Positions 4,217 through 48,890 of a DNA stretch of 64,000 nt are shown one piece after another. The notes beneath the pieces are model-generated. The model had not been told where the DNA came from, made no database searches, and was given only the letters and a program-made list of their open reading frames with translations. Each line of letters starts with the position of its first letter. Position 1 is the first letter of the stretch. Location of the stretch: positions 96,001-160,000 of the forward strand of contig CAXXVO010000012.1 of the NCBI GenBank assembly GCA_963422645.2. Direction: 5' to 3'. The stretch is from Alphaproteobacteria bacterium. Lineage in GTDB: Bacteria; Pseudomonadota; Alphaproteobacteria; UBA828. The position numbers and the translations under genes are program-made.

Positions 4217-5424
4217 CTCCACAGCACCGTATCGAAGAGATCGCGATGTTCCTGGATGGCGAAGCGATCCGTCATTCCGGCGACGTAGTCGGCAACCACG
4301 CGCGCTGTACTCAATGTTCGCGGACCGTCGCACCGGGTCCGCCACTCCTCCGGCAGGCACTGCGGCTCCTCGATGAAGAGCTCGAAGAGCTCGCGCACGG
4401 TCCGGCGCGCCTTGCTGGCCATCCGGTTGACCTTGTGATGACGATACATGCGCTCGTGCAGAAAGGCCTTCAAGGCCTCACCGTGGTCCTGCATCGTCGC
4501 CGAGAAGGCGATCAACGGTGCGCCGTGGTTGCGCACGGCCTCGACGTCCCCAAGCCCGGCTTCTGCCAGGCGCCGCCCGCTGGAATCGATCACGTCTTCG
4601 ACCATGGCGCCGATCATGCGGCGGACCATCTCGTGAATCCGGCGGCTTTCCTCGCCGCCCGGATTATCGGTGGTCACGTCTTTCAGAATCGTCCCCACCA
4701 GGGGAACGTCCCGCAGGTCATCGACGGCGAAGAGGCCCGCGCGCAGCCCGTCGTCCACGTCGTGATTGTTGTAGGCGATATCATCTGCCAGCGCAGCGAT
4801 CTGGGCCTCCAGGCCGGCGTGGGTGTCGAGCTCCAGATCGTGCCGGCCCGAGTAGGTCTCGATGGCGCCGGGGGTTGCATCCGCCGGACGCGGGCCATTG
4901 TGCTTCGCCACCCCTTCCAGGGTCTCCCAGGTCAGGTTCAGGCCGTCGAAGTCGTTATAGCGCTGCTCCAGGGCGGTCAGGATGCGCATGGTCTGCGCGT
5001 TGTGATCGAACCCGCCGTAAGCAGCCATCGCCTGGTCCAGCGCGGCCTCGCCGGCATGGCCGAAGGGCGGGTGCCCGAGATCGTGAGCCAGCGCGAGCGC
5101 CTCGGCGAGGTCTTCGTTCACACCGAGCACGCGGCTGATCGAGCGCGCGATCTGCGCCACCTCCAGGCTGTGTGTCAGCCGGGTGCGGTAGTGATCCCCC
5201 TCGTGATAGACGAAGACCTGGGTCTTGTGCTGAAGCCGACGGAACGCCGCGCAGTGGATGATCCGGTCGCGGTCGCGCTGAAAGGCCGTCCGCGTGCGGC
5301 TTTCCGGCTCCTGATGGTGGCGCCCGCGGCTCCGCTCGGGGAACGAGGCGTAAGGGGCTGCCGCGAATTGCAGGGCAGATGTCGCCACACCTGACGCAGA
5401 GATGGCGCTCGTGCTCAAGCTCAC
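4213..5424 (-). CDS. dgt: Deoxyguanosinetriphosphate triphosphohydrolase (HD domain)
   Basis: [46 protein letters not shown] motifs. Confidence 0.95.
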
Positions 5425-8603: not shown

Positions 8604-10871
8604 TCAGACTTCCTGACCTCTGCTGATTTTAGGTGACACGAGCCGCGCGGATTCCGAGGCCCCGTCGATGTCGTAGACTATGCGCAGACGGGTGCCGGGG
8701 AAGACCGTTTCGGTGGCGTTCAGGTCGCTCAGAACCGCATCGATCCAACGGTCGCAGGCGTCGTTTGCGAGGCCAAGAATGTGGACCCGCAGGAGGCCAT
8801 TGCCAGGATCCGGCAGGATGTCGGCATCGGCGGTGAGCAGCGCTTGAAGCAGTTTCCGGGGATGGGGCTTGTGGCCCTGCGCCTGCATGACGGGAAGCAT
8901 CATGCGGGTTTCGGCGCGGTAGGCGATCATCCGGATGACGTCGAGGAGGAGGCGCTCGCGCGCGGGCAAGGCATCGAGCTGCTCGGCTTCGTCGAGGTCG
9001 CCGGCCCGGCAGTGCTTGGGCGTCTCCCTGCGGCTGGCCCTGACGATGTCGCGGACATCCTGGAGGTCCCTGACTTCCCTCCTGAGTTCCGCCGTCGGCT
9101 GCTTCTTCCGGGCCGTGTCGGCGATGCGGTTGCGCAGGCGGCCAAGCTGGCGGTCGAGGCGATGGATTGCCTTGTCATAGGCCCGCCGCAGCGGGTTGAC
9201 GACCATGGCGGCGGGATCGAGAGGCTCGAGCTCGTGGGTCGGCAGGGCGTCGAGATTGAACTCGTCACGCATGTACTTGAAGAAGTTCTCCTGCGACCAG
9301 CGCGAGAACATGGCGCCCGCAACCTCAGCCATCGGCTTGTGCGGATCGGTGGTGATCAGCGGCACCTGACGGCCGTTGTCGAGCAGGCGGCGGATCTGGC
9401 GCACCCTGAAGCCGTTCGGCAACGTCACCGGCTTCTCAGCCAGCCGCATGGTGGCGCTGCCGTCCGCCGCCGGTCCGTGAATGGGAACGGTCATCGCGCC
9501 GAAGTCCTCGGCCGGCCAGTCCTCGCCCCTGAAGTTCTTGTGCCAGGTCAGGCAGGCGACGCCGCGCCTCGCCAGCCGGCGGAACAGATCCGGGCTCCAG
9601 CCCTCGCGGTCGAAGACCAGGGTGAGCGCCGGCTGGCCGGGATGCTCGGCGGTCAGGTCCGGCGCCCCGGCGCCAACGATCCCAAGCTCCTGCAGCGCCG
9701 GCACCACGTCGGCTTCGATGGCCGCGACCATCTTCGGGTCCAGCGGCTTGTGCAGACAGAGCAGCGGCTTGCCGCCCAGAGCGTTGATCCAGTAGCTGGC
9801 GCTCGCCGGCAGGCACAGCTTCTCGCGCGAGACGAAGTGCTTGGGCAAGCGCCCCTTGCGGCCGGAGTAGACCTTGACGTGCCCGTCGATGGCCAGCGTC
9901 GCCCAGAGCTCCGGCTCGTCGGCGCCTGCCAGCGCCTGGCAAGGGCGAGCTGCCACGCCCGCACGCCGGCCTCGTCGTCGGCGATGAGAGCGATCTTGCG
10001 GCGCAGCGTCTTGACCTCGGGGCAGCGATCGAGGCCGAGAATGGCGCCCCATTCGCCCGGCGCCTGGTAGCGCAGGCTCTCGGGGTTGCGCACCCGCGCC
10101 AAGGTCATGAAGGCCAGGAAGAGCAGGATCGTAGGCAAGCCGTAATAGCCCTTCGGCAGCAATGGCAGGAGACCGGTCTCGGAGAGAAGACCTTCCTTCA
10201 GCAGGGCCGGCAGGGCGGCGAGCACGCCGCCGAAGCGGACACCGCGGGCGGCGGCGGCGAACTGCGGTTCGACCGGCCCCGCCTGTCCACAACTGGCCAG
10301 AACCCGAGCCGGAACATCGCAAGTCGCACGCCCCATCGGCGCCTGCCGGTCCCGCCGATCGCGCGCGCTGCGATCCGTTTGCGGCTGCGCTTCCAGCCCC
10401 GGCGCCGTCTCCGGCCCCGGGGCACCGGTACTCTCTTCATCGACACGGCCTTCAGGAGCCGCACCCGCGTCAGGCGGCGCAGCCAGCGCTGAGCGTCCGG
10501 GCTCCCCATCCGCCTCCGTGTTGCCGATCAGTCCCTGACGGCGCCACTTGTTGACCGATGGCGCTGACACGCCGAGAACCCGGGCCGCCGCAGAGCCGCT
10601 CAGGCCCGATGCCAGCAACGCCGTCGCCTTCTCCGCCAACTCCGGAGTGAACACCGACGGCCCGCGACCGCGCCGGGGCTTCATGAACCCCGCTTCGCCC
10701 TCGGCCAGGTAGCGCCGTCGTGCGCGCTGCACCGTCGCGCGCGAGACAGCGAAAGCGTCAGCCAGTTCCTGCGGCGAGACCGCGCTGATCGCCGCGAGGC
10801 GGCCGATCCGCAAGAGCATGGCCGTGCGGTCATCGGCGGCGTGGCTGTCAAATTGGGAGGGTACTGGGCAT
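8604..10871 (-). pseudogene. Frameshifted transposase of IS copy 1
   Basis: Split between ORFs 9653..10819 and 8604..10322; otherwise matches the intact ORFs at 24901 and 29781. Confidence 0.85.
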
Positions 10872-11027: not shown

Positions 11028-12456
11028 AACCTATACAGTCAAGCGGGGATCAACGACGCGCCGACGGCGAAACGGCACCGACGGCAAGCAACATCAGCAC
11101 GCACTCAGAACTGGCGGCGGGGTACCTGGGTAGTTACATTCGAAGTACATCGTGCTCTGGGCGATCAACACCATCAGCACCAATCTGCACCATTGGCCCT
11201 TCATCGCGGAGGCCCAGCGCCGCGGCGCCAAGGTGGTCGTGATCGATCCGGTCGCGACGCGCACGGCCAAGCAGGCCGATTGGCACTTGCCCATCACGCC
11301 CGGCACCGATGCCGCGCTGGCGCTCGGCATGATCAACGTGATCATCGCGGAAGACCTGGTCGATCACGACTATGTCGAGAAGTACACGCTGGGCTACGAC
11401 GAGCTGAAGGAGCGCGCGGCGAGCTTCCCGCCGGACGCGGTCGCGGAGATCACCGGGATTGCGGCCGACGACATCCGCACGCTCGCGCGCGAATTCGCCA
11501 CCACACAGCCTTCCGTCATCCGCATGGGGGTCGCCATCGAGCGCAATGCCTCCGGCGGCAACGCCGTGCGCGCCATGTCCTGCATCCCCGCTCTGGTCGG
11601 CTCGTGGCGCCATTGCGGCGGCGGCATCCTGCACATGCCGATCTGGGCGTTCCCGGTGAAATGGGACGACTTGAGCCGGGGCGACTGGATTCGCGAGGGC
11701 ACGCCGGTGGTCAATCAATGGCGGCTCGGTGCGGCGCTGGCGGGCGAGCTCGAGCACAAGGTCAACTCGCTCTTCGTCTACAACTCGAACCCGGTGGTGG
11801 TGGTGCCGGAGCAGGACAAGGTGCTGCAGGGCCTCGCGCGCGAGAATCTTTTCACCGTGGTCAGCGAGCACTTCATCACCGATACCGCGCGCTACGCCGA
11901 CATCGTGCTGCCGGCCACAACGCAGCTCGAGCAGTTCGACGTCATGTTCTCCTGGGGGCACCTCTACCTCACGCTCAACGTGCCGGCGATCGCGCCGCTC
12001 GGCGACTCGGTGCCCAACACCGAGATGTTCCGCCGCCTGGCCCGCGCGATGGGCTTCAACGATCCCTATTGGGATCGGACGGACGAGGAGATGGCGCAGG
12101 ACGCGCTGGACTGGAGCAACCCCGTGCTCGAGGGGATCGATCTCGACGGCCTGCGCAAGACCGGCTACGCCCGCCTCAAGGTCGGCTCGCCGGAGGAGTT
12201 CGTCCCGCACCGCGAGGGCAACTTCCCGACGCCTTCCGGCAAGGTCGAGTTCAAGTCCTCCATGGCCGAGGGCGTCGGCAACATGGTGTTGCCGCTCTTC
12301 CGCCAGGGCCATGCCGCCGATCAGTCGGGCGAGGCGCTGGATCCCTTGCCCAACTTCATGTAACTGCCCAGGTCGTCTGATTTGTCATTTTGGGCCAGTG
12401 GATTGAGGCGTTTCTCGTTCGGAGTTGGTGGAAAGGGCTTGACGGGAATTTCGGGA

Positions 12457-13507
12457 ACCGCTTATGCACATGGCTCCGGTTCGATCAACATGCTGTAGGT
12501 AAGGGGTTTTGCATTGGTGGCGATGCGGAAGAGCGAGCGGAAAGCAGCGTGGCGGGTTTTGCGGCGGTTGAAGCGAAAGGCGAACTCATCGAGATAGGCC
12601 TGCAGATGCTTGCGGCGCAGCCCGTGGTAGACGCCTCGCGCCCATCCTTTGAGGTTGGAGAAGACTTGGTGGATCCACGGCAGGACGAGGTGAGCGGCGG
12701 TCTTCCCGACGACATGGACATTGTGGCGATCGGCGGGGACCGCAGCGTAGCCGGACCAGCCGTCGGTTTTCGCGATGGCGTCGGGATCGGCGGCGGTTTC
12801 GACGAAGTGTCCGAGGTCGGCGGCGCCGTAGGAGGAGATTTCGGCCAGCCGCAGGCGGCCCGGGATGGTTCCATCCCCCAGTTCGATGGCGCCGACGATG
12901 AGCATCTTGCCGTCGTGGCTGCGTCCTTGCCCTCCGGTGGGAGGATCGTCTTTGGTCCGGAATGGAAGGCTGGCCTCGTCGATTTCCACCAGGCCCGACA
13001 ACGGGTTGCGCTCGGGGTCGACCATGCTGGCGCGCAGCTTGTGGGCGAGCAGCCAAGCGCTGCGGTAAGAGCCGATACCGAGCTGTTTCTGGAGCTGCAG
13101 GGCAGAGATGCCGTTGGAGTGGGTCGCCATCAGGTAGGCGGCCCAGAACCAGACGGTGAGCGGCAGCTTGCTGGCGTGCAGGATCGTCCCGGCCGTCACC
13201 GAGGTCTGCCGGCGGCAGCCGGCGCACTCGAAGGTGTGTGCTTTTCTGCGCAGCGCCCATCCCTTTTCATGGCCGCACGCGGGACAGACGAAGCCGTCCG
13301 GCCAGCGCATTTCGATCAGCCAGGCGGCGCAGGCGTCATCGTCCGGGAACATGTGCTGGAAGGCGAGGAGGCTGTCGGCGACCTGTTTCATGTGGTGGCT
13401 CCGTCGGCAGGAACGTATAGGCAACATTCTACCCGTTCTCCCGCCCTAACCTCAACCTCAACATCTGGTGGCAAACTCTCGCGACCGGAGCCATGTGCAT
13501 AAGCGGT
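12457..13507 (-). mobile_element. IS1595-family element
   Basis: 24-bp perfect TIR ACCGCTTATGCACATGGCTCCGGT; 8-bp TSD TTTCGGGA; empty site visible in the IS66 copy at about 37760-37790. Confidence 0.93.
12462..13427 (-). CDS. IS1595 family transposase
   Basis: RWPDGFVCPAC zinc ribbon, VEIDE, TDGW..Y, YLDEFAFRFNRR. True start may be an internal Met near 13391. Confidence 0.92.
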   Translation of the reverse strand: MLPIRSCRRSHHMKQVADSLLAFQHMFPDDDACAAWLIEMRWPDGFVCPACGHEKGWALRRKAHTFECAGCRRQTSVTAGTILHASKLPLTVWFWAAYLMATHSNGISALQLQKQLGIGSYRSAWLLAHKLRASMVDPERNPLSGLVEIDEASLPFRTKDDPPTGGQGRSHDGKMLIVGAIELGDGTIPGRLRLAEISSYGAADLGHFVETAADPDAIAKTDGWSGYAAVPADRHNVHVVGKTAAHLVLPWIHQVFSNLKGWARGVYHGLRRKHLQAYLDEFAFRFNRRKTRHAAFRSLFRIATNAKPLTYSMLIEPEPCA

Positions 13508-13532
13508 TTTCGGGAAATGACTCAACAACGAC

Positions 13533-15039
13533 ATGAGCAATCCCGAGTCGCCGCGCGGCCCTTCGACGGGAGCAGCGCCCGAAACGCCCGCGCAGAAGAT
13601 CGCCCGCCTGGAGGAGGAGAACGCCCGGCTTCGGGAGGAAAATGCCTGGCTTCGGCAGCAGAACGCGCGGCTGGAAGAGCAAGTCGCGCGTCTCGTCGAG
13701 CGCATCGAGGAGTTGGAGCGCCGTCTCGGCCTCAACAGCGGCAACAGCGGCAAGCCGCCTTCGAGCGATGGGCTGAGGAAGCCGAATTCGAAGCGGCGAA
13801 CCCGAAGCCTGCGCGGCAAATCGGGCCGCAAGCCCGGTGGCCAGCCCGGCCACAAGGGCAAGACGCTGCGCCGCGCCGATCACCCGGATCGGGTGAAGGA
13901 TCACGTCCCGGCTTCCTGCAAGGGATGCGGTTCGCCGCTTTCGGACGCGGCCAGGGCGGGAACGCCCGTCGCCCGCCAGGTGTTCGATCTGCCCGAGCCG
14001 AGCCCCCTGGAGGTGACCGAGCACCGGGCGCATGCCAAGTGCTGCGGGCATTGCGGGACGGTGACCCGGGCGGCGTTCCCCGACGGGGTGTCGGCGCCGG
14101 TGCAGTACGGCCCGCGCATTGCCGGGGTGGCGGTCTACCTTCAGCACGCTCACTTCCTGCCGGAGGATCGGCTGTCGCAGGTGATGGCCGAGCTCTTCGG
14201 CGCGCCGGTGACGGCTGCGACGTTGGCGACGATGAGCGAGAGGGCGGCCGAGCGGCTTGCGGGACGCGGCCTTGCACATACAGGACCTGGCGGCGGGCAC
14301 GGCGCGGGTGAAACACATGGACGAGACCGGCTTGCGGATCGGCGGTCAGACGCAGTGGCTTCATGTGATCTGCACGCCGCTGCTGGCGGCGTACCGGGTC
14401 AGCGGCAAGCGCGGCGCCCTGCTCTCGGGTGTCTCCGGCATCGTCGTGCACGATCACTGGAAGCCGTACTTCGCGATGGAAGGGGTGGAGCACGGCCTGT
14501 GCAACGCCCATCACCTGCGGGAGTTGCAGGCGCTGGTGGACATCGAAGGGGAGGCTTGGGCCCGGCGGATGCAGCAGCTCCTGCGCCGAGCCAATCGCGC
14601 CGCCCGCATCGCGCTGGACAAGGATATCGCCGTTCCGGCGAGGCTTGTGGCGCTGATCGAGCGCCGATACGACGAGATCATCGCCGATGCGCTGGCCTTT
14701 CACGAGAGCCAACCACCGTTCTCGCCTGGCAAGAGGAAGAAGCGCCGGAAGCGAAGGATCGGTCACAATCCGGCCTTGAGGCTGCGCGACCACAAATGCG
14801 CGGTGCTCCGGTTCCTGATCGACCTCGAGGTCGGGTTCACGAACAACGAGGCCGAGCGCGACCTTCGGATGATGAAGCTGCGCCAGAAGATCTCCGGGGG
14901 CTTCCGGTCCGCGCAGGGGGCCGAGAACTTCGCCATCCTGCGCAGCGTCATCACCACCGCCAGAAAGCAGGGCTGGAATATCATCGAAGCCCTGACCAGC
15001 CCATCGGATCGGCTCATCGCCACCGTCAAGTGCGCGTAA
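13533..15039 (+). pseudogene. IS66 family transposase, +1 frameshift near 14257
   Basis: GAGCGGCTTGCGG vs GAGCGGCTGCGG in the copy at 36379-37755; split ORFs 13533 and 14257. Confidence 0.85.
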
Positions 15040-15770
15040 GCTCACCTGGCACGGGTTCTCCAACAGCGGAGCCATTCTCATAAACGATCATGGTCGACGC
15101 CGTGCTGGACCACCCCATAGAATGAAAATCGGTGCCCGTCGCGCGGGCGGACTTCGGGCCACATCGGGGTAGCTTACCGGTCGCAGTCCGCAAGAGGGGC
15201 ATCGTGAGCTGTGAAACCCGGCGACCCCAGAGGAGCACACGGGCGTCGCGTGGGTAGCGTTGTGCCGAATCCCAGAGAATTTTCACAGCAAGAACCTGGG
15301 CAGTTACAACTTCATTCCGCGCAATGAATCGGCGGAGACCAGCCCCGAGCTCGCCGCGCGCTACCCGCTCAGCATGCTGTCGCCGAAGCCTCACGCCTTC
15401 CTCAACTCGTCCTTCGCCAACATGCCGACCCAGCTGCACCATGCCGGCGAGCAGTTGGTGATGATCAATCCGGGCGATGCGGGCACCCGCGGCATTGCCG
15501 ACGGCGACACGGTGCGTGTCTACAACGATCGAGGCACCTTCGAGGCGATGGCGCGGGTGAGCGAAGACGCGAGCCCCGGGGTCGTGGTCGCGCCGCTCGG
15601 CTACTGGGCGGAGCGCAGCCCAAACGGCCGCACGGTGAACGCGATCAACCCACCGGCCTTCGCCGACTACGGCAACGCGCCGACCTTCTCAGACACTCTG
15701 GTCGAGATAAGCGCCGCGTAGTCGGGACTGGCGCCTCGACCCGACGCGGTAGTGGCGACCGCCGCGAAGG

Positions 15771-22426: not shown

Positions 22427-22521
22427 TCTATTCCGATTTTCTGGCGCTTGTCACGGGCCTAGGCCCGCTGACCCCTCTGCGCCGTCCATATCGCGCCCGC
22501 CCTTGAGGGACATGATTAGGG

Positions 22522-22728
22522 GGGTAAAGAGGGCCGGACCGCAGGTCCGGAGCGCGCGACTGCGCGCCGCGCCGAATGGCGCGTAGGCAAGCGAACGGAG
22601 TGAGCGCCCGCCGTCGAGGGAAATGAATAAGGGTAAAGAGAACCGGACCGCAGGTCCGAAGCGCGCGCCTGCGCGCCGCGCCGAATGGCGCGTAGGCAAG
22701 CGAGCGGAGCGCGCGCCCGCCGTCGAGG
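22522..22728. repeat. Tandem 109-bp-period repeat (two near-complete copies)
   Basis: GGGTAAAGAG..CCGGACCGCAGGTCCG..GCCGAATGGCGCGTAGGCAAGCG..CGCCCGCCGTCGAGG at 22522 and 22631. Confidence 0.9.
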
Positions 22729-22781
22729 TTTAAAAAAACTAGCGCCCGGCTACGGCCGATAGGTCGATCCCGCCCCGTCCC

Positions 22782-23766
22782 TCACCATGCCGAGGGGTCG
22801 AGGGGAATCTCCGGTGGCCACAACTCGCCGCCCCAGGCCCAGCGATTGGGGCGCGCGATATGCGGAACGTCGTCCGCGTCCTGCGCTCTGCGCGCGTGGC
22901 CGACATCGTGCGCTCTGCGCGCGTGGCCCATATCCTGTTCTTCGCACGCAGCTCCCGCGTCGGGGGCCTCTCGTGCGTCCTCCGGGTCGCGCTCTTCATG
23001 CGCGTCTTCGGAGAGATGCGCGTCCCGCGCGCCGCCCCCATCGTGCGCTCCGCGCACGTGGCCCACATCGTGCGCTTCCGGCTCTCCCCAGGCGAAATGC
23101 CCGGCGCTCGAGTCCGGCGATGGCTCCGGCGGGGCGGCCTCGGGCCCGGCAGGCGCGTTGGCATCCGGCCAGGCCTCCCACGGCTTCGAGCCGAGGCGCT
23201 CGGGGTGGAACCCCGCCTTGATGGCCGGGCCGAGGAGGGCCCTCATTTCCTGCGTGGAAGGGGGCTTGCGCGGGGCCTGAGGAGCGGCGCTCTCGGCCGC
23301 CGTCCGCTCCCCTTTGAGGCGGTGCTTGTCGACGACTTCGATGCGGTGGAGCGCAAGCGCAAGACACGCGATCTCGTCCGGCGAAGGCGGCTCCTCGCGC
23401 GCGGCGAGCTCGCCCATCTTGAGCAGCAAGAGCGACCGCACGCCCTCGACGGCGAGGCGTGCGGTGTGATTCTCTCTACCGGGTCCCTGCCTCTCCGCCC
23501 ATTCCGCGGCTTGGGCGCTGACCTCGCGCTGCAGGTCGATCAGGCCGTGAATGTGTGCGGTGAAGAAGTCGTCGGCGGAATCCGAGCTCTCACCCTCGTG
23601 CGGATCCGCGCGGAGGAACGCGGTCGGGCGAATACTTGCCGCGATTGCGTCGACGGCAGCACCGTCTTCGATCTCTGCCGCAGCGCCCTCCCGGCCCGCG
23701 TCCTGCGCCGGCTCGCCCGCCGAGCCCCCGCCCGTCTCGCCCCTGCCGCCCTGTCGCCTCATCATG
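22782..23766 (-). CDS. Hypothetical protein, possible DUF3486/Mu gp27-like core with His/Asp-rich C-terminal repeats
   Basis: Helical core (RLAVEGVRSLLL..LALALHRIE..DK) and 9-aa repeats AHDVGHARR; start uncertain. Confidence 0.45.
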
Positions 23767-23850
23767 CCCCGCCGCCTGCGTCGCTCGCGATTCATGCCGC
23801 GATCCTGACGCGTCCGCCTCCGCCCTGTGCACCGCACCATGGTGCGGGGG

Positions 23851-23921
23851 GTCGCTCGCGCCCGAAGGGTCGCGAGCGCGAAACAAGTCGCTCGCGCCCG
23901 AAGGCTCGCGAGCGCGAAACA
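23851..23921. repeat. Two tandem 36-bp palindromic units
   Basis: GTCGCTCGCGCCCGAAGG(G/C)TCGCGAGCGCGAAACA at 23851 and 23887. Confidence 0.85.
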
Positions 23922-24021
23922 CAAAAGCCGCGGGTCGCGCACGCCCCCACCACAGGTCATGCCCCGACATGCCCGGACTCGTTCCGGGTATCCGGGCATC
24001 CCTCGCCACCAACCGCCACTT

Positions 24022-24057
24022 CGTCATGCCCGGACTTGATCCGGGCATCCACGGCTT
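24022..24057 (+). repeat. CGTC-type palindromic repeat, left arm flanking the GIY-YIG gene
   Basis: CGTCATGCCCGGACTTGATCCGGGCATCCACGGCTT; a degenerate copy lies at about 23956-24001. Confidence 0.9.
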
Positions 24058-24066
24058 CCTGCAAGG

Positions 24067-24360
24067 CTACGGCAGGGTTTCGAAAAGATCGTCCCAATTG
24101 GGGTTCTGTTTGCGGATGAGTCTGACCTTCCAGGCGCGCGGCCAGTGCTTCAAGGTCCGCTCTCGCTGAATGGCTGCGGCGATTTCCTCGTGCCGTTCCG
24201 CGTAGACAAGCCGGGTCAGGTCGTACCGCTTGGTGAACCCTTCAAGCAGTCCTTCGCGATGTTCCCACGCCCTGCGCACGATGTTGCTGGTCATGCCGAG
24301 ATAGAGCGTGCCGTTGGGTCGATTGGTCATGATGTAGACCCAGCCCGCGCCCTTTCTCAT
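24067..24360 (-). CDS. Stand-alone GIY-YIG nuclease (97 aa)
   Basis: WVYIMTN..NGTLYLGMT.NIVRR..EH, FTKRY....LVY.E, AIQRE..LK.W.R.WK..LI...NP.W.DL. Confidence 0.92.
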   Translation of the reverse strand: MRKGAGWVYIMTNRPNGTLYLGMTSNIVRRAWEHREGLLEGFTKRYDLTRLVYAERHEEIAAAIQRERTLKHWPRAWKVRLIRKQNPNWDDLFETLP

Positions 24361-24373
24361 GTCCTTATGCTGC

Positions 24374-24409
24374 AAGCCGTGGATGCCCGGAACAAGTCCG
24401 GGCATGACG
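24374..24409 (-). repeat. CGTC-type palindromic repeat, right arm (inverted)
   Basis: Reverse complement matches the left arm at 35/36 nt. Confidence 0.9.
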
Positions 24410-24421
24410 ATGCAAGGAACC

Positions 24422-24685
24422 GGCCTTGCGGATGCGGGCATCATGGCGAAGCGCGCCATGCGGGAGCCCGGCGAGATGTGCCCGACGCCCGCCCACGACA
24501 TGCCGACCGAGACGATCCGGGCCCTCCGCCCGCACGAGACCGCCAGTCAAGCGGTGCTCGCGCGTCACCCGAACGTGACCACGAGACTGGTGAGCCAGCT
24601 GGAGCGGGGCGAGAAACGCCCTCGCGGCGCCTCTCTCAAGCTCCTGACCCTGGTGGCGAAGAGGGGCCTCAGCGCGGTCGTGTGA
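24422..24685 (+). pseudogene. Degenerate XRE/HigA-like antitoxin, 5' truncated
   Basis: IRALR..E.ASQAV.AR..NV...LVSQ.ERGEKRP.G.SLKLL HTH; no intact N-terminus and no toxin partner. Confidence 0.65.
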
Positions 24686-24746
24686 GGGTGGTTGCTGGAC
24701 AACACGCAACAGTTGTGAAGTAACGGCGCACGAGCCATCATAAAAT

Positions 24747-27260
24747 CAGACTTCCTGACCTCGTGATGCTGGCTGTTCTGGGCAGCGTGCCGGGAACCCC
24801 TTGAATTCTGATACATTTCGGTTGTTTCAGGCGGTTTTTCGCTGGGTGTCGCGCCCGAGGTCTGATATTATAATTTGATACCAATTGCACGGTCTCAACC
24901 ATGCCCAGTACCCTCCCAATGTGCCCTCCAGAGGCGGTCTCGATCGGCAACAGCTGCTTCGCCGTCCTGATCTCGGACGACACCTTCACCTACTTTTCCA
25001 ACCTCATTCCCTTTGACAGCCACGCCGCCGATGACCGCACGGCCATGCTCTTGCGGATCGGCCGCCTCGCGGCGATCAGCGCGGTCTCGCCGCAGGAACT
25101 GGCTGACGCTTTCGCTGTCTCGCGCGCGACGGTGCAGCGCGCACGACGGCGCTACCTGGCCGAGGGCGAAGCGGGGTTCATGAAGCCCCGGCGCGGTCGC
25201 GGGCCGTCGGTGTTCACTCCGGAGTTGGCGGAGAAGGCGACGGCGTTGCTGGCATCGGGCCTGAGCGGCTCTGCGGCGGCCCGGGTTCTCGGCGTGTCAG
25301 CGCCATCGGTCAACAAGTGGCGCCGTCAGGGACTGATCGGCAACACGGAGGCGGATGGGGAGCCCGGACGCTCAGCGCTGGCTGCGCCGCCTGACGCGGG
25401 TGCGGCTCCTGAAGGCCGTGTCGATGAAGAGAGTACCGGTGCCCCGGGGCCGGAGACGGCGCCGGGGCTGGAAGCGCAGCCGCAAACGGATCGCAGCGCG
25501 CGCGATCGGCGGGACCGGCAGGCGCCGATGGGGCGTGCGACTTGCGATGTTCCGGCTCGGGTTCTGGCCAGTTGTGGACAGGCGGGGCCGGTCGAACCGC
25601 AGTTCGCCGCCGCCGCCCGCGGTGTCCGCTTCGGCGGCGTGCTCGCCGCCCTGCCGGCCCTGCTGAAGGAAGGTCTTCTCTCCGAGACCGGTCTCCTGCC
25701 ATTGCTGCCGAAGGGCTATTACGGCTTGCCTACGATCCTGCTCTTCCTGGCCTTCATGACCTTGGCGCGGGTGCGCAACCCCGAGAGCCTGCGCTACCAG
25801 GCGCCGGGCGAATGGGGCGCCATTCTCGGCCTCGATCGCTGCCCCGAGGTCAAGACGCTGCGCCGCAAGATCGCTCTCATCGCCGACGACGAGGCCGGCG
25901 TGCGGGCGTGGCAGCTCGCCCTTGCCAGGCGCTGGCAAGGCGCCGACGAGCCGGAGCTCTGGGCGACGCTGGCCATCGACGGGCACGTCAAGGTCTACTC
26001 CGGCCGCAAGGGGCGCTTGCCCAAGCACTTCGTCTCGCGCGAGAAGCTGTGCCTGCCGGCGAGCGCCAGCTACTGGATCAACGCTCTGGGCGGCAAGCCG
26101 CTGCTCTGTCTGCACAAGCCGCTGGACCCGAAGATGGTCGCGGCCATCGAAGCCGACGTGGTGCCGGCGCTGCAGGAGCTTGGGATCGTTGGCGCCGGGG
26201 CGCCGGACCTGACCGCCGAGCATCCCGGCCAGCCGGCGCTCACCCTGGTCTTCGACCGCGAGGGCTGGAGCCCGGATCTGTTCCGCCGGCTGGCGAGGCG
26301 CGGCGTCGCCTGCCTGACCTGGCACAAGAACTTCAGGGGCGAGGACTGGCCGGCCGAGGACTTCGGCGCGATGACCGTTCCCATTCACGGACCGGCGGCG
26401 GACGGCAGCGCCACCATGCGGCTGGCTGAGAAGCCGGTGACGTTGCCGAACGGCTTCAGGGTGCGCCAGATCCGCCGCCTGCTCGACAACGGCCGTCAGG
26501 TGCCGCTGATCACCACCGATCCGCACAAGCCGATGGCTGAGGTTGCGGGCGCCATGTTCTCGCGCTGGTCGCAGGAGAACTTCTTCAAGTACATGCGTGA
26601 CGAGTTCAATCTCGACGCCCTGCCGACCCACGAGCTCGAGCCTCTCGATCCCGCCGCCATGGTCGTCAACCCGCTGCGGCGGGCCTATGACAAGGCAATC
26701 CATCGCCTCGACCGCCAGCTTGGCCGCCTGCGCAACCGCATCGCCGACACGGCCCGGAAGAAGCAGCCGACGGCGGAACTCAGGAGGGAAGTCAGGGACC
26801 TCCAGGATGTCCGCGACATCGTCAGGGCCAGCCGCAGGGAGACGCCCAAGCACTGCCGGGCCGGCGACCTCGACGAAGCCGAGCAGCTCGATGCCTTGCC
26901 CGCGCGCGAGCGCCTCCTCCTCGACGTCATCCGGATGATCGCCTACCGCGCCGAAACCCGCATGATGCTTCCCGTCATGCAGGCGCAGGGCCACAAGCCC
27001 CATCCCCGGAAACTGCTTCAAGCGCTGCTCACCGCCGATGCCGACATCCTGCCGGATCCTGGCAATGGCCTCCTGCGGGTCCACATTCTTGGCCTCGCAA
27101 ACGACGCCTGCGACCGTTGGATCGATGCGGTTCTGAGCGACCTGAACGCCACCGAAACGGTCTTCCCCGGCACCCGTCTGCGCATAGTCTACGACATCGA
27201 CGGGGCCTCGGAATCCGCGCGGCTCGTGTCACCTAAAATCAGCAGAGGTCAGGAAGTCTG
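24747..27260 (+). mobile_element. Unclassified (ISNCY-like) large IS, copy 2
   Basis: TIR CAGACTTCCTGACCTC; 5-bp flanks AAAAT/AAATT do not match. Confidence 0.9.
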
Positions 27261-27261
27261 A
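24901..27261 (+). CDS. Putative DDE transposase (786 aa) with two N-terminal HTH regions
   Basis: HTH-like segments, IDGHVKVYSG, VFDREGW, RWSQENFF; multi-copy with TIRs. Confidence 0.88.
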   Translation: MPSTLPMCPPEAVSIGNSCFAVLISDDTFTYFSNLIPFDSHAADDRTAMLLRIGRLAAISAVSPQELADAFAVSRATVQRARRRYLAEGEAGFMKPRRGRGPSVFTPELAEKATALLASGLSGSAAARVLGVSAPSVNKWRRQGLIGNTEADGEPGRSALAAPPDAGAAPEGRVDEESTGAPGPETAPGLEAQPQTDRSARDRRDRQAPMGRATCDVPARVLASCGQAGPVEPQFAAAARGVRFGGVLAALPALLKEGLLSETGLLPLLPKGYYGLPTILLFLAFMTLARVRNPESLRYQAPGEWGAILGLDRCPEVKTLRRKIALIADDEAGVRAWQLALARRWQGADEPELWATLAIDGHVKVYSGRKGRLPKHFVSREKLCLPASASYWINALGGKPLLCLHKPLDPKMVAAIEADVVPALQELGIVGAGAPDLTAEHPGQPALTLVFDREGWSPDLFRRLARRGVACLTWHKNFRGEDWPAEDFGAMTVPIHGPAADGSATMRLAEKPVTLPNGFRVRQIRRLLDNGRQVPLITTDPHKPMAEVAGAMFSRWSQENFFKYMRDEFNLDALPTHELEPLDPAAMVVNPLRRAYDKAIHRLDRQLGRLRNRIADTARKKQPTAELRREVRDLQDVRDIVRASRRETPKHCRAGDLDEAEQLDALPARERLLLDVIRMIAYRAETRMMLPVMQAQGHKPHPRKLLQALLTADADILPDPGNGLLRVHILGLANDACDRWIDAVLSDLNATETVFPGTRLRIVYDIDGASESARLVSPKISRGQEV

Positions 27262-27970
27262 AATTATGTCGCTTGGGCAGTTTCAAGCCAATCAATTGTT
27301 CTTGGACGCATTCATCTCTGTTGTTAAGGAGAAGGGGTTTTACGTAACACTTGGCGACTATGACCGTGACAAGAAAATTATCCTCAACGCTTCGGCTAGA
27401 TGAATCTTAGGTAGCATTTCTGTGGGAACAACTGTTGAGAACAACTTGCATCGCTATTGTTGCAGAGGAGACAATTGCGTCGACAGTCGTGTGTCGCGCC
27501 GGGGTCATTTCGCCGTCCTCTCTTACCTTCGGGCGAACGCGGGGGTTGCATCTCACCCGGCGCCGCCGCATCCTGCCGTGGCTCCGGGTGCGCGGAGTCG
27601 TGCCATGAGAGTACCGCGCGTTCCGTGCGCCCGGAGCACCGCGCCTTCGGCGTGACGCAACGAGGAGGTATCGCAATGCCGGCTGACGATCTGAGCCTCG
27701 CGATACGCATCCGTGCCGACACGCAGCAGGCGGCGGACGAGATGGGCAAGTTCAACGGCCGCCTCGACGATGCGGGCGGGCCCCGCCGCGAGAGCGCCGC
27801 AGTCGCGGCCTGTCGCGCGTCCGTCCAAGTCGGACGCGCTCTAAGTCCCAGCGTGGAAGCACCCGATGGACCGCTCCATCCGAATATGCCGCCCGCGCCG
27901 AACAGGCACGCCGCTGCCGCCACTCCATCGCTCGATTGGTTTTGGACCGGTGCACCGCGGGAGGCAGAGG

Positions 27971-29643: not shown

Positions 29644-29780
29644 CCGGCCTCCCCGGCGAATACCTGCCTCAGCAGGGTGTCCGCGCCTTCTGTATCGCCC
29701 GGTTCGGTCTCATCCTGCTTGGTCTCCGGGCGCGCGGAGCCCCGCGGCCATCGTAACGCGGACCTCCGGCGCGAACAGTT

Positions 29781-32138
29781 TCAGACTTCCTGACCTCTGC
29801 TGATTTTAGGTGACACGAGCCGCGCGGATTCCGAGGCCCCGTCGATGTCGTAGACTATGCGCAGACGGGTGCCGGGGAAGACCGTTTCGGTGGCGTTCAG
29901 GTCGCTCAGAACCGCATCGATCCAACGGTCGCAGGCGTCGTTTGCGAGGCCAAGAATGTGGACCCGCAGGAGGCCATTGCCAGGATCCGGCAGGATGTCG
30001 GCATCGGCGGTGAGCAGCGCTTGAAGCAGTTTCCGGGGATGGGGCTTGTGGCCCTGCGCCTGCATGACGGGAAGCATCATGCGGGTTTCGGCGCGGTAGG
30101 CGATCATCCGGATGACGTCGAGGAGGAGGCGCTCGCGCGCGGGCAAGGCATCGAGCTGCTCGGCTTCGTCGAGGTCGCCGGCCCGGCAGTGCTTGGGCGT
30201 CTCCCTGCGGCTGGCCCTGACGATGTCGCGGACATCCTGGAGGTCCCTGACTTCCCTCCTGAGTTCCGCCGTCGGCTGCTTCTTCCGGGCCGTGTCGGCG
30301 ATGCGGTTGCGCAGGCGGCCAAGCTGGCGGTCGAGGCGATGGATTGCCTTGTCATAGGCCCGCCGCAGCGGGTTGACGACCATGGCGGCGGGATCGAGAG
30401 GCTCGAGCTCGTGGGTCGGCAGGGCGTCGAGATTGAACTCGTCACGCATGTACTTGAAGAAGTTCTCCTGCGACCAGCGCGAGAACATGGCGCCCGCAAC
30501 CTCAGCCATCGGCTTGTGCGGATCGGTGGTGATCAGCGGCACCTGACGGCCGTTGTCGAGCAGGCGGCGGATCTGGCGCACCCTGAAGCCGTTCGGCAAC
30601 GTCACCGGCTTCTCAGCCAGCCGCATGGTGGCGCTGCCGTCCGCCGCCGGTCCGTGAATGGGAACGGTCATCGCGCCGAAGTCCTCGGCCGGCCAGTCCT
30701 CGCCCCTGAAGTTCTTGTGCCAGGTCAGGCAGGCGACGCCGCGCCTCGCCAGCCGGCGGAACAGATCCGGGCTCCAGCCCTCGCGGTCGAAGACCAGGGT
30801 GAGCGCCGGCTGGCCGGGATGCTCGGCGGTCAGGTCCGGCGCCCCGGCGCCAACGATCCCAAGCTCCTGCAGCGCCGGCACCACGTCGGCTTCGATGGCC
30901 GCGACCATCTTCGGGTCCAGCGGCTTGTGCAGACAGAGCAGCGGCTTGCCGCCCAGAGCGTTGATCCAGTAGCTGGCGCTCGCCGGCAGGCACAGCTTCT
31001 CGCGCGAGACGAAGTGCTTGGGCAAGCGCCCCTTGCGGCCGGAGTAGACCTTGACGTGCCCGTCGATGGCCAGCGTCGCCCAGAGCTCCGGCTCGTCGGC
31101 CTGCCAGCGCCTGGCAAGGGCGAGCTGCCACGCCCGCACGCCGGCCTCGTCGTCGGCGATGAGAGCGATCTTGCGGCGCAGCGTCTTGACCTCGGGGCAG
31201 CGATCGAGGCCGAGAATGGCGCCCCATTCGCCCGGCGCCTGGTAGCGCAGGCTCTCGGGGTTGCGCACCCGCGCCAAGGTCATGAAGGCCAGGAAGAGCA
31301 GGATCGTAGGCAAGCCGTAATAGCCCTTCGGCAGCAATGGCAGGAGACCGGTCTCGGAGAGAAGACCTTCCTTCAGCAGGGCCGGCAGGGCGGCGAGCAC
31401 GCCGCCGAAGCGGACACCGCGGGCGGCGGCGGCGAACTGCGGTTCGACCGGCCCCGCCTGTCCACAACTGGCCAGAACCCGAGCCGGAACATCGCAAGTC
31501 GCACGCCCCATCGGCGCCTGCCGGTCCCGCCGATCGCGCGCGCTGCGATCCGTTTGCGGCTGCGCTTCCAGCCCCGGCGCCGTCTCCGGCCCCGGGGCAC
31601 CGGTACTCTCTTCATCGACACGGCCTTCAGGAGCCGCACCCGCGTCAGGCGGCGCAGCCAGCGCTGAGCGTCCGGGCTCCCCATCCGCCTCCGTGTTGCC
31701 GATCAGTCCCTGACGGCGCCACTTGTTGACCGATGGCGCTGACACGCCGAGAACCCGGGCCGCCGCAGAGCCGCTCAGGCCCGATGCCAGCAACGCCGTC
31801 GCCTTCTCCGCCAACTCCGGAGTGAACACCGACGGCCCGCGACCGCGCCGGGGCTTCATGAACCCCGCTTCGCCCTCGGCCAGGTAGCGCCGTCGTGCGC
31901 GCTGCACCGTCGCGCGCGAGACAGCGAAAGCGTCAGCCAGTTCCTGCGGCGAGACCGCGCTGATCGCCGCGAGGCGGCCGATCCGCAAGAGCATGGCCGT
32001 GCGGTCATCGGCGGCGTGGCTGTCAAAGGGAATGAGGTTGGAAAAGTAGGTGAAGGTGTCGTCCGAGATCAGGACGGCGAAGCAGCTGTTGCCGATCGAG
32101 ACCGCCTCTGGAGGGCACATTGGGAGGGTACTGGGCAT
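29781..32138 (-). CDS. Putative DDE transposase (785 aa)
   Basis: Matches copy 2 except for one codon (WQAD vs WQGAD). Confidence 0.88.
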   Translation of the reverse strand: MPSTLPMCPPEAVSIGNSCFAVLISDDTFTYFSNLIPFDSHAADDRTAMLLRIGRLAAISAVSPQELADAFAVSRATVQRARRRYLAEGEAGFMKPRRGRGPSVFTPELAEKATALLASGLSGSAAARVLGVSAPSVNKWRRQGLIGNTEADGEPGRSALAAPPDAGAAPEGRVDEESTGAPGPETAPGLEAQPQTDRSARDRRDRQAPMGRATCDVPARVLASCGQAGPVEPQFAAAARGVRFGGVLAALPALLKEGLLSETGLLPLLPKGYYGLPTILLFLAFMTLARVRNPESLRYQAPGEWGAILGLDRCPEVKTLRRKIALIADDEAGVRAWQLALARRWQADEPELWATLAIDGHVKVYSGRKGRLPKHFVSREKLCLPASASYWINALGGKPLLCLHKPLDPKMVAAIEADVVPALQELGIVGAGAPDLTAEHPGQPALTLVFDREGWSPDLFRRLARRGVACLTWHKNFRGEDWPAEDFGAMTVPIHGPAADGSATMRLAEKPVTLPNGFRVRQIRRLLDNGRQVPLITTDPHKPMAEVAGAMFSRWSQENFFKYMRDEFNLDALPTHELEPLDPAAMVVNPLRRAYDKAIHRLDRQLGRLRNRIADTARKKQPTAELRREVRDLQDVRDIVRASRRETPKHCRAGDLDEAEQLDALPARERLLLDVIRMIAYRAETRMMLPVMQAQGHKPHPRKLLQALLTADADILPDPGNGLLRVHILGLANDACDRWIDAVLSDLNATETVFPGTRLRIVYDIDGASESARLVSPKISRGQEV

Positions 32139-32292
32139 GGTTGAGACCGTGCAATTGGTATCAAATTATAATATCAGACCTCGGGCGCGACACCCAGCGA
32201 AAAACCGCCTGAAACAACCGAAATGTATCAGAATTCAAGGAGTTCCCGGCACGCTGCCCAGAACAGCCAGCATCACGAGGTCAGGAAGTCTG
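29782..32292 (-). mobile_element. Unclassified (ISNCY-like) large IS, copy 3
   Basis: Same TIRs; 5-bp TSD AGTTT. Confidence 0.92.
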
Positions 32293-32359
32293 AGTTTAGC
32301 GCGTGCATTCGGTGCGATCGTGTTAGTGCGCGCGTTCCGCGCGACGCCGGCCGAGACCC

Positions 32360-46659: not shown

Positions 46660-47628
46660 TTATTCGATGCTGTCGAGCGAGCAGGCCTCGTCGAGGGTGA
46701 AGCGCAGCTCCTGCGCCTCCCCCACCGAGACCTCGCGAAACTTGATGTACTCGTTGGGCTTCATCTGGCCGAGCTTCCAGAAGGCGGCGGACGGCACCGT
46801 GTAGGGGCAGATGAAGCCGCCCATGCTGGGGCCGTCGTTCATCAGGATGATCGGCGTCTGGCCGCCCAGGTTGACCGCGCCCAGCGGATAGCCTTGGTCG
46901 ATGATGTTGGACGGAAAGTCGCCGTGCTCCGGCGCCTTGTCGGTGGCCTTCTCGGTGAAGGTCCAGTCCGGCCCGCTCAGGCGATAGCCCGTGCGGTCGC
47001 TCCGCGCCTCCAGCATCCAGGCCGTCTCGATAAAGCGCTCGTGGCCGGCGTCGTCGATCCAGTCGTCGTTGGGGCCTCGCACCGCCTGGATTTCCCAGGT
47101 CTTGCCGCCCGGGAAAGCCGGCCGCGCGCGATCCGCAACCCGCCGGCCCGGCGTGCCTGCGGCCTCCCTCACCGGGAGCACCTGCCCCGCCTGCACCGCG
47201 TGGCCGTCGAGCCCGCCGACTCCGGCCTTGTGGAAGGTAGACGCCGAGCCCAGCCACTCCGGTGCGTCGATGCCGCCCGCCACTGCGAGATAGCCGCGGG
47301 CGCCCGCGACCGCCGGCCCCATCACGAGGGTCTGCCCGGCCCCGACGGCGACACTCTCCCACATCGGGATCGGCTGTCCGTCCACGATCGGGCGCATGTT
47401 GGCGCCGGTCACCGCGATCATGCCGCTGCGCTGGAAGCGGATGGTCGGCCCCATGAACTGGGCCTCCAGCCCCGGCGCGCCCTCGTCGTTGCCCACCGCC
47501 AGATTGGCGAGGCGGAACGACCACATGTCCATCGGGCCCGAGGGCGGGAAGCCCTGGTTCCAGTAGCCGACACGACCGGGGTAATCCTGAATGCTGGTCT
47601 CGAGTCCCGGCTTGACGATCTCAAGCAT
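46660..47628 (-). CDS. Biotin-dependent carboxyltransferase / PxpC (KipA)-like subunit
   Basis: PG..TSIQD.PGR.G, PPSGPMD, AN.AVGN, RSDRTGYRL, DGP..GG. Confidence 0.88.
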   Translation of the reverse strand: MLEIVKPGLETSIQDYPGRVGYWNQGFPPSGPMDMWSFRLANLAVGNDEGAPGLEAQFMGPTIRFQRSGMIAVTGANMRPIVDGQPIPMWESVAVGAGQTLVMGPAVAGARGYLAVAGGIDAPEWLGSASTFHKAGVGGLDGHAVQAGQVLPVREAAGTPGRRVADRARPAFPGGKTWEIQAVRGPNDDWIDDAGHERFIETAWMLEARSDRTGYRLSGPDWTFTEKATDKAPEHGDFPSNIIDQGYPLGAVNLGGQTPIILMNDGPSMGGFICPYTVPSAAFWKLGQMKPNEYIKFREVSVGEAQELRFTLDEACSLDSIE

Positions 47629-47727
47629 GAACGCGCTCTCCTGGTGTACTGGTGTCGTGTTTCCGTTGTTCATTCCGAACCAGTGGGGTTGGCGAACGAC
47701 CTCTCACACCAAGCCTCTGCCACACAC

Positions 47728-47821
47728 CGTCATGCCCGGACTCGTTCCGGGCATCTCTCTCAGCCAGACCCACCGGATGCTGGGACATGCGTGGATGGCC
47801 GGGACAAGCCCGGCCATGACG
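47728..47821. repeat. REPIN-like inverted doublet of the CGTC palindromic repeat
   Basis: CGTCATGCCCGGACTCGTTCCGGGCATC...GTGGATGGCCGGGACAAGCCCGGCCATGACG. Confidence 0.88.
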
Positions 47822-47867: not shown

Positions 47868-48797
47868 CTAGTGAAGGTGCTTGAGGTACTGGGCCACGAA
47901 ATCGAAGCCGATGAGCTTGCAATAGAGCCCCATCAGCCGCTCCGTCGTCGGGCCGGGGATCCTGCGCTCGGCGAAGGGCACGTCGTTGATGGTCGCCACC
48001 GGGCAGATGCAGAAGCTCGTCGACGTAATGAATGCTTCGTCGGCGCCGTGGGCGTCGAAGAGATCGAGGTCGCACTTCACCACCTCGATGTCCGCCTCCG
48101 CCGCAAGCTCCAGCACGGTCTCGCGGCTGATGCCGTTGAGCACGTAGCGATCCTGCGGGGTGTAGAGCACACCGTCGGTGACGAGAAAGATGTTGGAGCC
48201 GACGCCTTCGCTGAGATTGCCATTGTGATCGAGGAAGAGTGCCAGGGCATTGGGGTCGCGGCGGCGCACCTCGTCGTTACCGACGAAGAGACTCAGGTAG
48301 TTGTGGGTCTTCGCCCGGGGGGAAATCGAATCGGGCGCCGCGCGGCGGTTCGAGGGAACCATCAACGGAATCCCGTCGCGGTAATAGTGGGCGCGCTGGG
48401 GAATCGGAAGCGGCGTGCAGTCGATGATGAGCACCGGGTCGGTCGAGCCGTGAAAATCGCCCCCCGCCGGCTCGAGACCGCGGGAGATGCGCTGGAAGAC
48501 CCAGTAGTCCTCGTCCGGCCCCAGCAGGTGGAGGTTGCGGGCGAGCACCTCCTCGGTGTGGCGCTTCATCTCCGACGGCGCCATGCCGGGGTCGATCCGC
48601 AGATAGCGCAACGTCTTGTAGAAGCGCACGATGTGCTCTTCCAGCTTGAAGATGCGGTGCCCGAAGGTGCGGGTGGTATCGAAGGCGCCGTCGCCGTAGC
48701 GGAAGCTCCGGTCGCGGAAGGAGACCAGGGCCCGGCTCTCCGGCACGATCTCCCCGTTGAAGTAGCAGACCCGCTCGTTGGCGCGCTCAACGACCAT
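47868..48797 (-). CDS. Class IV PLP aminotransferase (branched-chain/D-amino acid)
   Basis: DR.F.YGDG.F, AKTHNY, EG.GSN.F, L.GISR, ADEAF.TST. Confidence 0.88.
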   Translation of the reverse strand: MVVERANERVCYFNGEIVPESRALVSFRDRSFRYGDGAFDTTRTFGHRIFKLEEHIVRFYKTLRYLRIDPGMAPSEMKRHTEEVLARNLHLLGPDEDYWVFQRISRGLEPAGGDFHGSTDPVLIIDCTPLPIPQRAHYYRDGIPLMVPSNRRAAPDSISPRAKTHNYLSLFVGNDEVRRRDPNALALFLDHNGNLSEGVGSNIFLVTDGVLYTPQDRYVLNGISRETVLELAAEADIEVVKCDLDLFDAHGADEAFITSTSFCICPVATINDVPFAERRIPGPTTERLMGLYCKLIGFDFVAQYLKHLH

Positions 48798-48890
48798 CTC
48801 TTCGCCCCCTGCCTCTGGCGACTCCCCTGCCCGTCGGCGCGCGATCATGGCGCAAAAGCCCGACGGGTGCGAGTGCCCTCCGCGCGACCC

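Follow-up and report, generated by a model that had tools for sequence, protein, structure and literature searches.

Why does a gene for a stand-alone GIY-YIG nuclease lie between two inverted, CGTC-tagged hairpin repeats with almost no space to spare, and do gene and repeats belong together? The locus in question lies in a 64,000-nt stretch of contig CAXXVO010000012.1 from an uncultured alphaproteobacterium; this whole stretch is referred to as the window. A preliminary description had proposed that the nuclease takes the position held by REP-associated tyrosine transposases (RAYTs) in families of repetitive extragenic palindromic (REP) sequences, and that gene and arms form a mobile unit of roughly 390 bp. 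Our analysis supports, with a probability of about 85%, that the window locus is an ssn gene with its cognate Ssn-related motif (SRM) repeats, and that its product is a single-domain endonuclease of the Ssn family (cd10448 in the published description). The pairing of such genes and repeats has been in print since 2025, and the window locus is a further Ssn/SRM pair.

Ssn proteins were described by Chenal et al. (Nat Commun 2025, PMC11893778) as site-specific nucleases of single-stranded DNA (ssDNA) that have SRM (or NTS) repeats as their motifs. SsnA of Neisseria meningitidis, a 94-aa single-domain GIY-YIG protein of CDD family cd10448, binds an oriented NTS hairpin only as ssDNA and cuts a few nucleotides upstream of the repeat; the reverse strand, duplex DNA and RNA are left uncut, and the substitutions Y6A, Y17A and E64A abolish cutting (PMC11893778). 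Cutting depends most on the three bases that precede the palindrome, and binding on the C that follows it (PMC11893778). Loss of ssnA leads to about 5-fold more transformation with NTS-bearing DNA, and the role shown experimentally in Neisseria is restriction of incoming ssDNA, not transposition (PMC11893778). Binding and cleavage were shown directly for four members, and the published degenerate motif was found flanking 71% of homolog genes, on both sides at 42% (PMC11893778). The Discussion of the paper calls the NTS-ssnA-NTS layout identical to that of insertion sequences (ISs) and offers the parallel with IS200/IS605, RAYT and REP/bacterial interspersed mosaic elements (BIMEs) as a hypothesis (PMC11893778). 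Our literature search found no later paper on the Ssn family or its mobility, and no bacterial gene-repeat pairing of this sort was found in titles and abstracts that combine GIY-YIG with the terms REPIN, repetitive extragenic palindromic or miniature inverted.

The product of the 97-aa open reading frame (ORF) in the window is a stand-alone GIY-YIG domain (Pfam PF01541, E 2.7e-11, residues 6-78). PF01541 is its sole Pfam domain, there is no separate DNA-binding domain, and its length falls within the range of about 90-100 aa expected of Ssn proteins. With a gonococcal NTS-flanked locus serving as the homology proxy for N. meningitidis SsnA, BLASTP aligned the window protein to the translated N. 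gonorrhoeae ssnA-type locus at 51% identity over 86 residues (E 1e-32), and tblastn against the same locus gave E 3e-22, within the published threshold of E < 1e-10. Residues Y9, Y20, E67 and N86 are invariant among 20 homologs, and the first three align with the catalytic Y6, Y17 and E64 of the Neisseria enzyme. No specific NCBIfam model was found for the protein, the only match being a weak one to TIGR01453 below its cut-off (E 0.0027). By sequence, the nearest solved structures are the UPF0213/YhbQ-type proteins PDB 1zg2 (profile E 1.3e-05) and 1ywl (E 0.021). A scan of positions 23800-24750 found no sigma-70-like promoter, and an Rfam scan of 22500-25500 at E ≤ 1 returned a single chance-level snoRNA match only.

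The ORF nearly fills the gap between the two inverted arms (Table 1), each of which matches the published degenerate SRM motif, so that the gene is flanked by the motif both 5' and 3'. The two arms are 43 nt long and 93% complementary, and both face outward from ssn. In the forward direction of each arm, CGTCAT is followed by a 9-bp stem, a 5-nt loop (CTTGA or CTTGT), the returning stem and CCACG. The hairpin core ATGCCCGG-N7-CCGGGCAT has five matches in the window at ≤2 mismatches (at 23969, 24026, 24383, 47732 and 47795), compared with a mean of 0.09 in shuffled sequences, where five were reached in 0 of 100. As ssDNA, the arm at 24021 folds at -13.0 kcal/mol (z -5.2) and that at 24368 at -14.4 kcal/mol (z -4.3). 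The published motif matches both arms and the left member of the doublet exactly; together with one likely chance match, these three real matches compare with 0.62 per shuffle. Neither arm has a T-run, and neither was called as a terminator in the terminator scan.

Table 1. Positions of the ssn gene, its hairpin repeats and the adjoining antitoxin-like gene in the window.
Feature	Coordinates	Strand	Evidence
ssn gene, GIY-YIG nuclease of Ssn family	24067-24360 (stop codon included)	minus	Pfam, BLASTP
Upstream arm (relative to ssn), SRM hairpin repeat	24368-24410	minus	nhmmer E 6.9e-11; motif match 24379-24409
Downstream arm (relative to ssn), SRM hairpin repeat	24021-24063	plus	nhmmer E 5.5e-11; motif match 24022-24052
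Degenerate solo SRM copy	23962-23996	plus	one core mismatch; nhmmer E 7.5e-05
Gene-less convergent SRM doublet	47728-47820	.	nhmmer E 7.7e-07 and 8.9e-11
Xre/HTH antitoxin-like gene	24443-24685	plus	HTH_31 E 0.0019; TIGR03070 E 3.2e-05, below cut-off

The layout given in the preliminary description was thereby recovered: the GIY-YIG ORF lies between 36-nt inverted arms that agree at 35 of 36 positions, the exception being one loop base, and folding and core-match counts bear out a CGTC-tagged hairpin in each arm. The degenerate third copy, the gene-less doublet and the 5'-truncated antitoxin gene beside the cassette were all found as described. The solo copy is in tandem orientation with the arm at 24021, carries the tag CGAC and a 3' side reading ATCCGGG, and has no match to the published SRM motif. 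Same-orientation tandem arms were seen beside the gene, either upstream or downstream, in the window (23962-24052) and in the related locus L039 (9891-9970), which hints that single arms can be added beside existing ones. The doublet lies between two minus-strand genes (46660-47673 and 47868-48848) and joins arms of different stem subtypes, GCCCGG and GGCCGG; in folding, it forms one long hairpin that includes two sub-hairpins (-28 kcal/mol, z -4.0).

Selection acts on the hairpin as a structure. In a pairing test on 143 distinct elements, 94.1% of the 1287 cells form a standard pair, while sliding the partner by 1-3 columns lowered pairing to ≤45.7%. Changes on both sides of the stem were observed at eight of nine stem pairs, in 148 cells compared with 33.7 in shuffles, a value reached in 0 of 500. 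Among 290 distinct elements, conservation outside the paired bases is strongest at GTCAT before the stem, at CTTG in the loop and at CC after the stem. The GTC before the stem and the C after it, which are the critical bases in PMC11893778, are thus conserved in this clade.

To place the window locus among its relatives, we used one genome per species; 568 of 583 candidate stretches were confirmed, and the best 80 of these were examined. Homologs of the window protein form 6871 clusters at E ≤ 0.001, and the 120 that were listed are 67-97% identical to it. The published SRM motif flags a flanking element at only 20 of 80 clade genes, compared with 71 of 80 for a profile built here, so the latter was used for all counts. 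Since the published motif rejects the GGCCGGG stem that dominates this alphaproteobacterial clade, the published association figures may understate the link in lineages of this kind. The profile, 47 nt long and made from 287 pattern matches, yielded 315 elements (E ≤ 0.01) when searched against the 80 loci and the window (1.276 Mb). As wrong binning is possible, copies from short contigs assigned to Acidobacteriota, Verrucomicrobiota, Patescibacteria or Bacteroidales did not serve as evidence of transfer.

Genes and repeats were found to be tightly associated. Among the 80 of 85 full-length genes that have at least 130 nt on both sides, outward-facing arms were present on both sides of 55, on one side of 16 and on neither side of 9, so that 71 have at least one. 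The nine genes without such arms include genes that lie between two whole doublets, the syntenic genes of L055 and L077, whose arms are too divergent for the profile, and a paralog in L004 that is 34% identical and has a different repeat family. Elements number 3.99 per kb up to a distance of 130 nt from the genes and 0.103 per kb elsewhere, a 39-fold enrichment. The spacers of the 116 adjacent convergent pairs are bimodal, with 65 of ≤150 nt and 49 of 281-480 nt, besides one of 164 nt and one of >2000 nt; ssn lies inside all 49 pairs of the longer class, and no other cargo was seen. About 14 genes show the opposite arrangement, a doublet on each side with the nearest arms facing inward. Many predicted homologs begin inside the repeat, so that the proteins carry its translation (MPGLVPGIH...), and one terminates in the translation of the opposite arm. 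The expectation that this GIY-YIG clade would be enriched between inverted repeats was therefore borne out.

The same design extends to distant homologs. All six that were inspected, out of 35 plasmid or chromid records, are 45-58% identical at the protein level and lie between arms built in the same way; their sources are Rhizobium, Sinorhizobium, Novosphingobium, Azospirillum, Neisseria gonorrhoeae and Aeromonas, and thus from Alpha-, Beta- and Gammaproteobacteria. Their stems vary by lineage, and the Neisseria arms read ATTCCC-N8-GGGAAT, which is the dRS3 repeat, defined likewise in PMC11893778. In the N. gonorrhoeae record (L085, 1470-1775), the ssnA-type frame has no in-frame ATG and a nearby ATG opens a frame that stops after 10 codons; the gene table, which is incomplete, lists no feature at this locus, and the gene may be inactive in that strain. 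The L004 paralog (4771-5055, minus strand) has, on either side, several copies of its different repeat, about 45 nt long (region 4500-5350), and the same assembly also carries a canonical ssn, which suggests a second nuclease-repeat pair within one genome.

Several points weigh against assigning the window locus to this system, or against carrying over what is known of it. The specificity of the window enzyme is inferred from enzymes about 50% identical to it, whose stems are different (ATTCCCGCG compared with ATGCCCGG). The CTTG loop is strongly conserved here, while loop identity is dispensable in Neisseria (PMC11893778), so recognition may differ. The role established in Neisseria may not transfer to this uncultured alphaproteobacterial host. 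Lastly, co-variation of protein and repeat, a check proposed in the preliminary description, was not detectable within the clade (Mantel r 0.107, a value equalled or exceeded in 208 of 2000 permutations). Arms are more alike within a cassette than between cassettes (3.65 and 6.16 mismatches in 32 nt, respectively), and gene-less copies resemble the arms of their own locus more than those of other loci (3.79 and 6.82 mismatches), and this likeness can be explained by shared ancestry.

On the assignment to the Ssn family, a mechanism can be proposed. By analogy with the Neisseria, N. elongata, N. wadsworthii and Wolbachia enzymes, the protein would bind the repeat solely in its single-stranded, hairpin-folded state, and only on the strand reading CGTCAT-stem-loop-stem-C. 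It would then hydrolyse the bound strand a few nucleotides 5' of the motif and spare duplex DNA and RNA, as its characterised relatives do. Because the window arms face outward, the predicted cuts would fall just outside the cassette, one per strand; the enzyme would have additional targets in the solo copy and in the doublet at 47728. More speculatively, cuts might arise whenever the region becomes single-stranded, during replication, repair or DNA uptake, and might promote recombination, inversion between the arms and the occasional copying of arms or of the whole module. The most likely overall picture, similar to that of RAYTs and REPs, is a low-copy nuclease gene amid a family of hairpin repeats that it probably helps to maintain or spread. 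Its cutting of SRM-bearing single strands would influence how incoming or replicating DNA recombines, and movement or exchange of the SRM-ssn-SRM module would be rare. What stands of the earlier proposal is that a GIY-YIG protein occupies the RAYT position as the dedicated partner of CGTC-tagged repeats, as is also found in PMC11893778; the mobile unit of about 390 bp is a possibility with observations for and against it.

The evidence on mobility of the SRM-ssn-SRM cassette points both ways. One explanation, which overlaps with the assignment favoured here, is that the cassette is an autonomous mobile element and the doublets are its non-autonomous derivatives, similar to REPINs or miniature inverted-repeat transposable elements (MITEs), with Ssn cutting the ends and host replication or repair finishing the process. 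Doublets and cassettes are indeed alike in arm sequence, orientation and the inner CCACG extension, the bimodal spacers and the exclusive presence of ssn in the longer class agree with such a relationship, and the IS-like layout has been remarked on in PMC11893778. Empty orthologous sites, which the preliminary description had proposed to look for, were found. In Azospirillum lipoferum 4B (L084, 1354-1972), a doublet-ssn-doublet unit lies just past the sufB stop codon, between sufB and sufC, and the sufB-sufC span measures 1901 nt compared with 1316-1413 nt in the 11 other Azospirillum records listed, whose flanks are 90-96.5% identical; no SRM-like element was found between sufB and sufC in the alignment of two of these 11. 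A separate insertion is present in the same spacer in Shinella sp. PSBB067 (L089, 650-1160), which belongs to another order and has its own ssn, its own stem type and single arms. In the Paracoccus and Sphingomonas records, the matched sufB-sufC stretch contains other small annotated genes, and small insertions seem to land in this spacer preferentially. L048 has neither cassette nor repeat at the site of the cassette in L019, at a flank identity of about 75%. In addition, a 36-nt solo SRM of L039 is absent from the matching segment of L075 as a clean indel with GGCTC on both sides, a single case of a possible 5-nt target duplication.

Other observations speak against movement of this kind. 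The gene is found at only 39 places in 35 plasmid or chromid records, one or two per replicon, and in at least four syntenic groups different species have kept the cassette at the same site; extra copies there are tandem duplicates. The lack of detectable co-variation between protein and arms within the clade likewise counts against brisk transposition. GIY-YIG enzymes hydrolyse DNA without a covalent intermediate, so the protein alone would be incapable of strand transfer, and this chemistry offers no known route to it. No consistent target-site duplication was found at the compared sites. The intergenic sequence around the Azospirillum insertion fails to align, so no junction or duplication could be read there, nor could one be read at the empty site of L048, and an empty-site megablast with the Rhizobium sp. 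CIAT894 copy returned only IS4 and peptidase flanks and no informative site. The roughly 14 genes between doublets with inward-facing nearest arms are also at odds with fixed terminal inverted repeats. On balance, we regard an autonomous element of this kind as possible, with the odds against it.

A second explanation holds that ssn is a homing-type selfish gene, which cuts gene-less doublets and is copied into them by recombinational repair with the arms as homology. The gene does lie exactly at the position of the doublet spacer, and symmetric arms would permit either orientation; in agreement with this, the window cassette is inverted relative to L001 and L002 while both flanks are collinear. 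However, the window and L001 share the same truncated junction between arm and antitoxin gene, which indicates that the flip is an in-situ inversion between the arms and not a new insertion. Duplex DNA is not cut by the characterised Ssn enzymes (PMC11893778), the window protein has no separate DNA-binding domain of the sort seen in I-TevI-type enzymes, arms of 30-43 bp are short for recombinational copying, and most doublets stay gene-less despite a gene nearby. Homing is therefore improbable.

The remaining explanation, that ordinary intergenic palindromes or terminators happen to surround a short DNA-repair gene, could draw on the intergenic, GC-rich nature of the repeats and on the earlier proposal that small COG2827-type nucleases are repair enzymes in Caulobacter (PMC1839093), but is contradicted, to the point of being negligible, by the 39-fold enrichment, by the presence of ssn as exclusive cargo in 49 of 49 long-spaced convergent pairs, by arms that lack a T-run and were not called terminators, by the same design around homologs in three proteobacterial classes and by the binding and cleavage assays published for four family members (PMC11893778).

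Beyond the single locus, cassettes and doublets might together represent a true class of mobile elements, built on a hydrolytic, hairpin-guided ssDNA nuclease, with host replication or repair completing the movement; we put this forward tentatively and consider it rather doubtful. If true, it would be a fourth mechanistic route beside those of DDE, HUH and serine/tyrosine enzymes, and the sufB-sufC insertions in Azospirillum and Shinella, the bimodal spacing and the in-situ inversion would be footprints of its activity. Demonstrated mobility would provide a new mechanism of transposition or homing and an explanation for very abundant intergenic repeats of proteobacteria. How the repeats and the cassette spread is a question raised, and left without an answer, in PMC11893778; empty sites, the repeated use of one operon spacer, inversion and exclusive cargo provide starting points for it. 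Independently of mobility, the window locus extends a family already valued for its programmable ssDNA cutters by an Ssn/SRM pair whose stem is distinct and whose loop is conserved.

The surroundings of the cassette are rich in mobile DNA. The antitoxin-like gene has about 15-17 N-terminal codons fewer than the syntenic copy in L002; its 5' end is replaced by the SRM arm, and it is a neighbour rather than a functional part of the Ssn system. To its right adjoins one of two identical (100%) inverted IS copies (24741-27263 and 29779-32298), each about 2.5 kb with a Transposase_29 (PF21804) gene, which bracket 2515 nt, an arrangement that suggests a composite transposon or a duplication that happened very recently; 8607-10322 holds a third Transposase_29 gene, a partial one. 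IS66, IS1595 and IS110 transposase genes occur elsewhere in the window, and a molybdopterin oxidoreductase gene at 11152-15718 is seemingly split by IS1595 and IS66 transposase genes into a part with the Molybdopterin domain (11152-12360) and a part with the Molydop_binding domain (15260-15718). A RAYT might have accounted for the SRM repeats, but a Pfam scan of 47 window ORFs detected no Y1 transposase/RAYT domain. Another GC-rich palindromic unit follows closely downstream of the cassette in minus-strand terms, as two tandem 36-nt copies (97% alike) at 23851-23921; one copy is terminator-like on that strand, and no further copies were found in the window at ≤3 mismatches. A tandem repeat of about 100 nt lies at 22525-22728, and both of its copies match L001, the nearest relative (8912-9017 and 4984-5081, 93-95% identity), which therefore shares another dispersed repeat with the window.

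Compared with known systems, the UPF0213/YhbQ-type GIY-YIG proteins (1zg2 and 1ywl) are similar to the window protein in size and in having a single domain but are only distantly related, and we know of no repeat association for them. Homing endonucleases of the I-TevI type differ in their second domain, a sequence-specific DNA-binding one that is absent here, and in cutting duplex DNA at alleles that lack the intron or gene; characterised Ssn relatives spare duplex DNA (PMC11893778). Insertion sequences with MITE derivatives likewise have one small gene enclosed by terminal inverted repeats, besides gene-less copies that consist only of both ends; unlike them, the SRM-ssn-SRM cassette has no recognised transposase chemistry, no consistent target duplication and a low gene copy number, and some ssn genes lie between two whole doublets instead of single arms.

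RAYT/REP systems, with their REPINs and BIMEs, resemble the window locus in layout only, as a low-copy gene bracketed by inverted, tagged palindromes with gene-less singlets and doublets elsewhere, and in the strand-specific recognition of an ssDNA hairpin, which for Ssn is known from characterised relatives. They differ in chemistry and fold: RAYTs are HUH enzymes with a covalent 5'-phosphotyrosine intermediate, whereas the window protein is a hydrolytic GIY-YIG nuclease of unrelated fold with no HUH/Y1 domain (PF01797), and its repeats carry the tag CGTCAT in place of the GTAG of REPs. The Ssn/SsnA system of N. meningitidis differs from the window locus in its stem, ATTCCCGCG compared with ATG(C/G)CCGG(A/G) and a conserved CTTG loop in the window clade, and in its host, the window host being an uncultured alphaproteobacterium. 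In common they have a GIY-YIG protein that consists of one domain and is about 95 aa long, the conserved catalytic residues Tyr, Tyr and Glu, inverted CGTCAT-palindrome-C hairpins on both sides of the gene and further intergenic copies of the repeat.

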